This document shows positions 33,780 to 35,722 of a stretch of DNA of 64,000 nucleotides, one piece after another; position 1 is the stretch's first letter, and every line of letters begins with the position of its first letter. Origin of the DNA: Dictyostelium discoideum. Lineage: Eukaryota. A program made the position numbers and the translations under genes. The stretch is taken from assembly GCA_000004695.1 (NCBI GenBank), contig CM000154.2, positions 1,760,001-1,824,000 on the forward strand, in the 5' to 3' direction. The notes below the pieces were generated by a model that saw only the letters and a program-made list of their open reading frames with translations, made no database searches and was not told the origin of the DNA.

Positions 33780-34201
33780 ATGTTTAAACAACAAAGTAAT
33801 GGAGGAGTGGATATTTTAAAGAAAAGAGATAAGGATGAAGATGAAGAAAGTGATGATAAAAAATCCAAATTTTCATTTGAAATACCAAAACCAATATATC
33901 CTCCAAGAAAAGATATACCATTTTTACCAACTATAGATATACATAATTATACAATGCTTACAACTGTTATAAAAATTAAACAAAATATACCATTTTCAAT
34001 ATATAATTTAAATCAAAAATCTTTTAAAGATGAAGGTAAGCTTTTAAATTATTCTGAATTATTATTAAATAAATAATATTTTATTTTATTTTTTTTTATT
34101 TATTTTTTTTTTTATTTATTTTATTTTATTTTATTTATTTTATTTTATATTATTTTATTTTGGTTGGTACTGTTGGAATCTCTTTTTCTGTTTACTGATG
34201 G

Positions 34202-34260
<59 letters not shown>

Positions 34261-34624
34261 TGGAAAAAAATTATTTTTAAAAAAAAAAGATGGAATTGAA
34301 AGATATTCAAATAGATTTACAAAAGTTAAAGAGAAAACAACATCTATTGAATTAAAATTACCAGGTATTAAATATGGTTATTTTCCATACGATTTGGTAG
34401 TGAATAAAAAGAAACCAAAAAAGAAAGCACTTATAAATACAAAAACATTAGATGGATTACAAAAAGAAGAGGAAGAAGGAAAGGAAGGGGAAAATGAAGA
34501 GGAGGAAGAGGAGGAAGAGGAGGAAGAAGAAGAAGATGGTGATTATGGTGAGGAGGTAGGTGTAGATGATGATGAAGATATGGATGATCCTGATGAAGGT
34601 GGTGATGGTGAGCCTGATTTCTAA
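33780..34624 (+). CDS. RNA polymerase III subunit RPC31 (Rpc7/POLR3G family), paralogue 1. join(33780..34035,34290..34624).
   Basis: FEIPKPIYPPRKD, DGIERYSNRFTK (cf. POLR3G DIERYSKRYMK), IKYGYFPYDLV, acidic tail ending GGDGEPDF. Donor GTAAGC at 34036 (phase 1); acceptor aaaAG at 34288-34289. Confidence 0.8.
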
Positions 34625-34681
34625 AAAGTTTCCCAAAAAAAAAAAAATTAAAAAGATAAAATTACAGACAACAAAAAAATA

Positions 34682-34714
<33 letters not shown>

Positions 34715-35018
34715 AAACAAATAATAGAAATAAAAACAAATGGATATAAATAACAAATGTTCCAAAAACAGATCAACAGGTTTTTTTTCAAAAAAAAAAG
34801 TCAAAAAAAAAAAAAAAAAAAAAAAAAAAGTGAAAAATGAAAAATGAAAAAAAAGATGGAGGATCGCTTGGTAATTCTTTTAATTTTCGTAAATTTTTTT
34901 TTTTATTTTTATAAAAAAAAAAAAAAAAAAAAAAACATAATTTGTTTATATAAAGACGCGTGTATATATTAAATAAGGACAAAAAAAGGTTATTCAGTAA
35001 TATAATATAACAATAATA

Positions 35019-35722
35019 ATGTATAGAGGACCAAGTAATGGTGGTTTATCGAGTTTAGGTAAAAGAGATAGAGATAATGATGATGACGAAGATGGTGAAA
35101 AGAAAGATAAATTATCATTTGATATTCCAAAACCAATATATCCCCCAAGAAAAGATATGCCATCTATACCAATAATTGATAGCGCAAATTATCGTATGAT
35201 TGAATACGTTATTAAATTAAAAGAAAGCATCCCTTTTTCAATTTACAATCTTAGTAGAGATTCAATAAAACCAAAAGGTACCTTATAATATATTCAAATA
35301 TATCATTCAAATAATAACAATAATAATAATTATTAATTTCAATTTCAATTTTTTTTTTTTTTATTGTTAAAAATTGATTTAAATTAGATGGTATTGAAAG
35401 ATATTCAAATAGGTTTGAGAAAAATGATGATACAGGATCAACATTTGAAATAGGTTTAGTAGGTATAAAATATGGTTATTTTCCATATGAATTGGTTGTA
35501 AATAAAAAGAAAACAAAGAAAAAACTCAATATGTCAAATAAAACTATTGAGGAATTACAAAAATTAGAAAAAGAAGGTGGTGAAGGTGAAGGTGAAGGTG
35601 AGGAAAATGAAGAGGAGGAACCAGAAGAAGAGGATGAAGGTGATTATGATGATGGTGGTGGTGTAGATGATGATTCTGATATGGGTGGTGATTCTGATGG
35701 AGATGGTGAAGCTACTTATTAA
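35019..35722 (+). CDS. RNA polymerase III subunit RPC31 (Rpc7/POLR3G family), paralogue 2. join(35019..35277,35388..35722).
   Basis: Same architecture and intron position as the copy 1.2 kb upstream. DGIERYSNRFEK, IKYGYFPYELV. C-terminus ...GDGEATY* matches the POLR3G C-terminus (...DEATY). Donor GTACCT at 35278 (phase 1); acceptor aattAG at 35386-35387. Confidence 0.8.

Follow-up and report, generated by a model that had tools for sequence, protein, structure and literature searches.

Do two adjacent genes of Dictyostelium discoideum encode alternative versions of one subunit of RNA polymerase III (Pol III), and if so, why have both been kept? The genes, here called copy 1 and copy 2, lie in a stretch of 64,000 nucleotides (positions 1,760,001 to 1,824,000 of contig CM000154.2, forward strand, assembly GCA_000004695.1; hereafter the window) that is AT-rich, with a GC content of 21%. 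The subunit in question, RPC31/RPC7, is the small acidic, Pol III-specific member of the RPC3-RPC6-RPC7 initiation heterotrimer (Rpc82, Rpc34 and Rpc31 in yeast), and it is extended and largely disordered outside the complex. We conclude that copies 1 and 2 are probably a functional Pol III RPC31/RPC7 pair that arose by one old tandem duplication, with copy 2 as the faster-evolving alternative and with both genes retained through partition of expression or through dosage.

We found that the copies are two-exon genes on the same strand with products of 196 amino acids (aa; copy 1) and 197 aa (copy 2), and that these products are 58% identical (BLASTP, E=2e-44, over the first 145 residues, with the low-complexity acidic tail left out), a paralogy far beyond chance. 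Both GT..AG introns are in phase 1 and cut the GAT (Asp) codon at the start of DGIERYSNRF. Hence, the two adjacent same-strand paralogues with identical exon/intron architecture that were described in the original prediction are borne out, and the N-termini given there, MFKQQSNGGVDILKKRDKDEDEE for copy 1 and MYRGPSNGGLSSLGKRDRDNDDD for copy 2, are exact, as are the acidic-tail ends GEPDF and GEATY. The separation of 1.2 kb given there holds from start to start (1239 bp) and fails as the gap between the genes, which is 394 bp from the copy 1 stop to the copy 2 start. The features of the locus are as follows.

33780..34035 and 34290..34624, plus strand: coding sequence of copy 1, 196 aa.
33780..34035, plus strand: exon 1 of copy 1, codons 1-85 plus base 1 of codon 86, coding for the acidic N-terminus and the PKPIYPPRKD...IPFSIYNL central region.
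34036..34289, plus strand: intron of copy 1, 254 nt, GTAAGC...AAAG, phase 1.
34290..34624, plus strand: exon 2 of copy 1 with the stop codon, coding for the stalk bridge DGIERYSNRF, for GIKYGYFPYDLVVNKKK as the conserved block, for KTLDGLQKEEEEG as the pre-acidic segment, and for an Asp/Glu tail whose last residues are GEPDF.
34625..35018, plus strand: AT-rich inter-gene spacer of 394 bp, presumed to hold the 3' end of copy 1 and the promoter of copy 2.
35019..35277 and 35388..35722, plus strand: coding sequence of copy 2, 197 aa.
35019..35277, plus strand: exon 1 of copy 2, the faster-evolving RPC31 paralogue (DDB_G0288665).
35278..35387, plus strand: intron of copy 2, 110 nt, GTACCT...TTAG, phase 1, at a position homologous to that of the copy 1 intron.
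35388..35722, plus strand: exon 2 of copy 2 with the stop codon, coding for DGIERYSNRF, for GIKYGYFPYELVVNKKK, for KTIEELQKLEKEG as the pre-acidic segment, and for an Asp/Glu tail that is richer in Gly and ends in GEATY.

The assignment of both products to the RPC31/RPC7 family appears sound. Copy 1 passes the Pfam profile PF11705 (RNA_pol_3_Rpc31) with 37.0 bits against a cut-off of 30.2 (E=4.8e-9), and copy 2 is placed in the family by its identity to copy 1 together with the profile results. A dictyostelid profile built from nine sequences and searched against 1.8 billion representatives (E<1e-3) found 101 proteins across eukaryotes, 112-347 aa long and mostly about 170-250 aa; its named matches include plant 'RPC7-like' proteins, and PF11705 is matched by 50 of 56 proteins found with it. 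With a joint profile of dictyostelids and their relatives, we found human RPC7 (7a6h_Q) at E=8.6e-24 and yeast RPC7 (6eu0_Q/7z0h_Q) at E of about 1e-20. The dictyostelid-only alignment matched residues 32-96 of human RPC7alpha, a span that takes in the central helix and the IERYS motif (hhalign, 88% probability, E=3.2e-6); as a profile against the PDB, it gave a weak match to yeast RPC7 (E=0.28), and copy 1 alone against the PDB gave only uninformative low-complexity matches to acidic stretches (anion exchanger). Hence, the RPC31/RPC7 membership proposed in the original prediction stands, by PF11705 for copy 1 and by the profile searches. Both genes had already been predicted in public databases, and their automatic UniRef names are those of Pol III subunits.

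All the modules defined for yeast Rpc31 (PMC10201443), beginning with the central Rpc82-binding region and continuing through the stalk bridge, conserved block, linker, pre-acidic segment and Asp/Glu tail, are recognisable in both copies. The stalk-bridge signature (D/G)IERYS(D/N/K)(R/K)(Y/F) reads DGIERYSNRF in each and aligns with yeast DGIERYSDKY and human DIERYSKRY. The conserved block, which is Asp123-Leu136 in yeast with Pro, Glu, Phe and Leu and which in human binds RPC3 WH1 (PMC10201443), contains GYFPYDL in copy 1 and GYFPYEL in copy 2, aligning with yeast LFPNEL. In both proteins a Leu-rich pre-acidic segment leads into an Asp/Glu tail that closes with an aromatic residue (...GEPDF in copy 1 and ...GEATY in copy 2; ...DEATY in human and ...EEAAF in yeast), and the C-terminal 55 residues, counted from LQK and so including part of the pre-acidic segment, hold 35 Asp plus Glu in copy 1 and 27 in copy 2. 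The yeast pre-acidic region binds Rpc34 (PMC10201443), and the human acidic tail enters the DNA-binding cleft of Pol III.

Beyond the window, the tandem pair recurs with its gene order and intron position unchanged in D. purpureum (L001 10001-10751 and 11068-11726), D. firmibasis, D. citrinum, D. cf. discoideum and a second D. discoideum assembly, and thus in at least five group-4 genomes; the intron position is shared by all eight other group-4 genes and by Polysphondylium violaceum. Tieghemostelium lacteum, Cavenderia fasciculata and Heterostelium album have one gene each, with no second copy within +/-10 kb, and one copy was found in P. violaceum by protein searches. These per-species counts leave out a word-indexed homologue search, which missed known members. 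In a neighbour-joining (NJ) tree (184 columns, 500 bootstraps), all group-4 copies form a clade that excludes P. violaceum (98%), copy 1 groups with D. purpureum gene 1 (92%) and copy 2 groups with D. purpureum gene 2 (82%). Since the tree groups the copies by paralogue and not by species, there was one duplication, in the group-4 ancestor, after the P. violaceum split and before D. discoideum and D. purpureum separated. The phylogeny suggested with the original prediction therefore dates the event to the group-4 ancestor, and the published dating of the D. discoideum/D. purpureum split, about 400 million years (My) ago (Sucgang et al., PMC3188802), makes the duplication about 400 My old. Since the tree puts the duplication inside Dictyostelia, it is independent of the one that gave vertebrate POLR3G and POLR3GL, as had been proposed.

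One observation could be read as a younger event, in which the pairs arose separately in each lineage or were homogenised by gene conversion: the synonymous divergence (dS) between the D. discoideum paralogues is 0.77, lower than the 1.03 that separates D. discoideum copy 1 from its D. purpureum orthologue. The low dS is explained by the extreme AT3 codon bias, with GC at third codon positions (GC3) of about 0.13. Pairing of paralogues within species received bootstrap values of 0.2-0.6%, and we saw no gene-conversion tract, that is, no stretch of abnormal synonymous identity. We therefore rejected gene conversion and independent duplication, on the NJ bootstrap and the scan of synonymous identity, and consider a young duplication extremely improbable.

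Copy 2 is 100% identical to DDB_G0288665 (XP_636611.1, Q54IM0) of D. discoideum AX4, and the gene downstream of it (146 aa) is DDB_G0288667, so copy 1 is probably DDB_G0288663. We found DDB_G0288665 and DDB_G0288663 together in the class DOWN_Hr16_gradual of the filter-development RNA sequencing of Rosengarten et al. 2015 (PMC4403905, Additional file 7; class lists of one dataset), and neither of them in the large DOWN_Hr00_rapid list of that source. Hence, copy 2 is transcribed and developmentally regulated. Differential expression of the two copies is not demonstrated by these lists, as DDB_G0288665 and the gene taken to be copy 1 fall into the same down-regulated class. It is possible, though in our view doubtful, that two RPC31-defined Pol III isoforms evolved independently in group-4 amoebae and are deployed differently in growth and in starvation-induced development; the mechanism could then lie in different promoters, or in a pre-acidic segment and tail whose differing properties change autoinhibition or the control by Maf1.

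Purifying selection acts on both copies. Among the D. discoideum, D. firmibasis and D. citrinum orthologues, the ratio of nonsynonymous to synonymous substitution (dN/dS) was 0.054-0.079 for copy 1 (bootstrap 95% upper bound <=0.16) and 0.157-0.269 for copy 2 (<=0.47), and the copy 2 ratio was the higher in at least 98% of resamples (P(w2>w1) >=0.98), with copy 2 evolving about 3-fold faster than copy 1. Changes unique to one copy since the duplication number 23 in copy 2 and 12 in copy 1 of D. discoideum (p=0.06) and are equal in D. purpureum (17 vs 20). The D. purpureum genome paper tabled DDB_G0288665 and gene 81233 as not simple orthologues (PMC3188802), and leaving the two unpaired fits their faster divergence.

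The purifying selection on both means that neither copy is a pseudogene. The idea that one of the two, with copy 2 the likeliest candidate, is a functionless duplicate in decay could draw on the higher dN/dS of copy 2 and on a two-residue deletion in the DGIERYSNRF motif of D. purpureum copy 2. Against it, open reading frames and splice sites are intact in five genomes, the dN/dS of copy 2 stays at 0.16-0.27 with an upper bound of <0.47, the duplicate predates the D. discoideum/D. purpureum split, and DDB_G0288665, which cleared the expression filter, shows developmental regulation. Decay is thus largely refuted and very unlikely, and the pseudogene that the original prediction had allowed for did not emerge, with purifying selection on both copies and DDB_G0288665 among the expressed, developmentally regulated genes.

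How the copies differ is uneven along the protein. Between the two D. discoideum products, identity is 100% in the stalk bridge, 94% in the conserved block, 61% in the pre-acidic segment, 48% in the N-terminus, 33% in the linker and 20% in the loop after the stalk bridge, and the tails contain 24 Glu and 8 Gly in copy 1 and 16 Glu and 13 Gly in copy 2. Across the D. discoideum clade and D. purpureum, only three sites are fixed differently between all copies 1 and all copies 2, namely K3/R3, D120/E121 and E173/D175, and all three exchanges are conservative (K/R, D/E and E/D). At D120/E121, the Glu of FPxEL has become Asp in copy 1, the derived state; it is Glu in copy 2 and in all outgroups. 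Identity between orthologues in the pre-acidic segment is 92% for copy 1 and 38% for copy 2, and in the central region 67% and 48%. Copy 2 thus has the pattern of a constrained but relaxed protein that appears to drift differently in each lineage, and it does not look like a conserved specialised isoform.

Sub- or neo-functionalisation at the protein level, convergent with vertebrate RPC7alpha and RPC7beta, would have the two subunits differ in Maf1 sensitivity, tail autoinhibition, Rpc34 contact or gene repertoire, with one serving growth and the other development or stress. Such a history would accommodate the maintenance of both copies for about 400 My under purifying selection, the centring of divergence on the loop after the stalk bridge (20%), the pre-acidic segment and tail composition, the position of the counterparts of these regions in yeast and human, where they touch Rpc34 and the cleft, and a diagnostic site that falls on the conserved FPxEL Glu, which copy 2 and the outgroups keep and copy 1 has replaced by Asp. 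However, copy 2 orthologues share just 38% of the pre-acidic segment and 48% of the central region, so that the changes are lineage-specific, and the sole expression list puts DDB_G0288665 and DDB_G0288663 in one class. Since only three conservative residues separate the paralogues across the clade, conserved specialisation of the proteins is argued against, and we regard this explanation as rather unlikely. The convergent sub-functionalisation advanced in the original prediction is therefore plausible and not demonstrated. Since there are almost no clade-conserved paralogue-specific residues, retention by partition of expression or by dosage is more likely than retention by a difference in protein function, and regulatory partition or dosage is the more economical reading.

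The functional pair that we favour has the following history. A single tandem duplication at the DNA level in the group-4 Dictyostelium ancestor left two copies that have been adjacent ever since, and both products have kept every module of yeast and human RPC31/RPC7. Pol III has one RPC31 site, which either protein could then fill, so that the enzyme would exist in two alternative forms, with presumably mutually exclusive incorporation. Copy 1 would be the slowly evolving main subunit and copy 2 (DDB_G0288665) the constrained, about 3-fold faster-evolving alternative, and the partition of expression or dosage would be the reason that both were retained over the long term.

Several points weigh against the functional pair. 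That both proteins are incorporated into Pol III is something we infer from their sequences. Copy 2 scores 22.9 bits against PF11705, below the gathering score of 30.2 (E=9.8e-5), in a match that covers profile positions 10-200 of 212. D. purpureum copy 2 (L001 11326-11420) reads DGIERY--RYSS, with two residues lost in the stalk-bridge motif; apart from this deletion, the motif is near-invariant. The P. violaceum contig stops 175 nt past its gene, so this locus is uninformative on copy number and a second copy there is possible; the case for just one comes from the tree and the protein searches. The history of the copies comes from NJ on 184 columns, and the identification of copy 1 as DDB_G0288663, through which its expression is read, comes solely from sequential numbering.

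The score of copy 2 under the Pfam gathering threshold would also suit a copy 2 that has left Pol III to act elsewhere, for instance as a nuclear protein of acidic chaperone-like or other type, with copy 1 alone serving the polymerase. The about 3-fold faster evolution of copy 2, the published comparison that did not pair it with D. purpureum gene 81233 as an orthologue, and the finding of only one of two C31 homologues in purified Arabidopsis Pol III (PMC4417161) agree with such a departure. However, D. discoideum copy 2 keeps all Pol III-contact modules (stalk bridge 100%, conserved block 94%), which is unexpected after loss of the role, and we hold the departure to be improbable.

The copy 1 product is also called, in identical form, in assembly GCA_054883475.1. 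The exact 196-aa protein is missing from a collection of 15 billion proteins (exact-sequence look-up), which returned no AX4 accession for it; AX4 accessions exist for copy 2 and the downstream gene (EAL63109/EAL63110). Since the GCA_054883475.1 product is called and likewise missing, this absence is uninformative; it looks like a gap in the protein collection, and the possibility that AX4 lacks an annotation of copy 1 was therefore given up.

The copy 1 intron holds an unbroken (T)57 homopolymer at 34203-34259, and perfect microsatellites, (TAA)45 at 35748-35882 and (ACAA)12 at 35932-35978, lie directly downstream of the copy 2 stop. The other D. discoideum assembly is 99.5% identical to the window across 12 kb with 48 gapped positions. 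The T. lacteum orthologue (L007 10001-10405) is collinear through its DGIDRHSNRF region and therefore lacks the phase-1 intron common to P. violaceum and all group-4 copies.

Upstream of the pair, at 32404-33327, is a gene for a protein of 307 aa whose N-terminus is signal-like and which contains about 17 Asn in a row and hydrophobic segments towards the C-terminus; its exact sequence had no match in the protein collection and it was assigned no family. A WD40 gene and an Asn-rich membrane-protein gene precede the pair in D. discoideum, D. firmibasis and D. citrinum. In D. purpureum (L001 6161-9297) and P. violaceum (L002 6574-9789), the RPC31 locus instead has as its upstream neighbour an N1221/DUF3402 gene, which is on the opposite strand. 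Hence, with these different upstream neighbours, the tandem pair was relocated as a unit in the D. discoideum clade. We found no tRNA gene and no Rfam family in the window, and thus no local context of Pol III-transcribed genes.

A literature search (POLR3G/POLR3GL with Dictyostelium, and both DDB_G identifiers in main texts) returned no discussion of the Dictyostelium RPC31 pair, which is apparently a new, undiscussed instance of a phenomenon known from vertebrates and Arabidopsis. By itself, the pair amounts to a lineage-specific duplicate of a known gene. Several answers have been proposed to the question of why vertebrates retain two RPC7 subunits, among them target choice, escape from Maf1, autoinhibition and simply extra dosage under MYC control. 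The sequence evidence here favours retention by regulation or dosage and so leans to the vertebrate model of more subunit when needed. The main value of the pair is as a tractable system in which the purpose of alternative RPC7 subunits can be tested: it is an independent pair of about 400 My in a haploid, easily engineered organism with a sharp switch from growth to development, in which clean single, double and swap knockouts are feasible. If two isoforms were indeed deployed differently, the roles of RPC7alpha and RPC7beta could be approached in Dictyostelium as a simple, haploid genetic model.

Both Dictyostelium proteins resemble Saccharomyces cerevisiae Rpc31 (C31) in the order of their modules, from the central helix through the stalk bridge, FPxEL block, linker and pre-acidic segment to the Asp/Glu tail, which in yeast ends in Ala-Ala-Phe. 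Unlike the Dictyostelium genes, yeast Rpc31 is single-copy, and it is essential. Its Arg/Gly-rich N-terminus is methylated on Arg5 and Arg9 (PMC10201443); both Dictyostelium proteins are without such an N-terminus and have an acidic stretch instead. Dictyostelid RPC31 N-termini consist of an acidic K/R-D/E stretch (33780-33880 and 35019-35120 in the window), and the Arg/Gly-rich motif that dictyostelids are without is present at the N-terminus in human (MAGNKGRGR), plant and metagenomic amoebozoan-like relatives.

Arabidopsis thaliana, like Dictyostelium, is a non-vertebrate lineage with two RPC31-family genes, of separate origin: its C31 homologues At4g01590 and At4g35680 are NRPC17 candidates, and only one of them was detected in Pol III purified from leaf (PMC4417161). 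Hence, duplication of this subunit is recurrent, and the unusualness that the original prediction implied for the Dictyostelium pair is lessened.

Yeast, worm, fly and Ciona have one RPC7 gene, and the POLR3G/POLR3GL duplication is placed in vertebrates, where it was DNA-based and preserved the exon structure (Renaud et al. 2014, PMC3875860). The Dictyostelium pair differs from it in its independent origin inside group-4 Dictyostelia, in its genes still being in tandem (the human genes are on chromosomes 5 and 1) and in how few paralogue-specific residues are conserved. For the vertebrate pair, incorporation that is mutually exclusive and expression that is linked to growth have been demonstrated; for the Dictyostelium pair, both are putative. 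In kind, the two cases are alike: as with POLR3G (RPC7alpha) and POLR3GL (RPC7beta), two paralogous genes with preserved exon structure encode one Pol III subunit, the Dictyostelium products are about 58% identical with a conserved IERYS motif and C-terminus and a variable N-terminus and linker, and one copy is nearer to the ancestral single-copy form.

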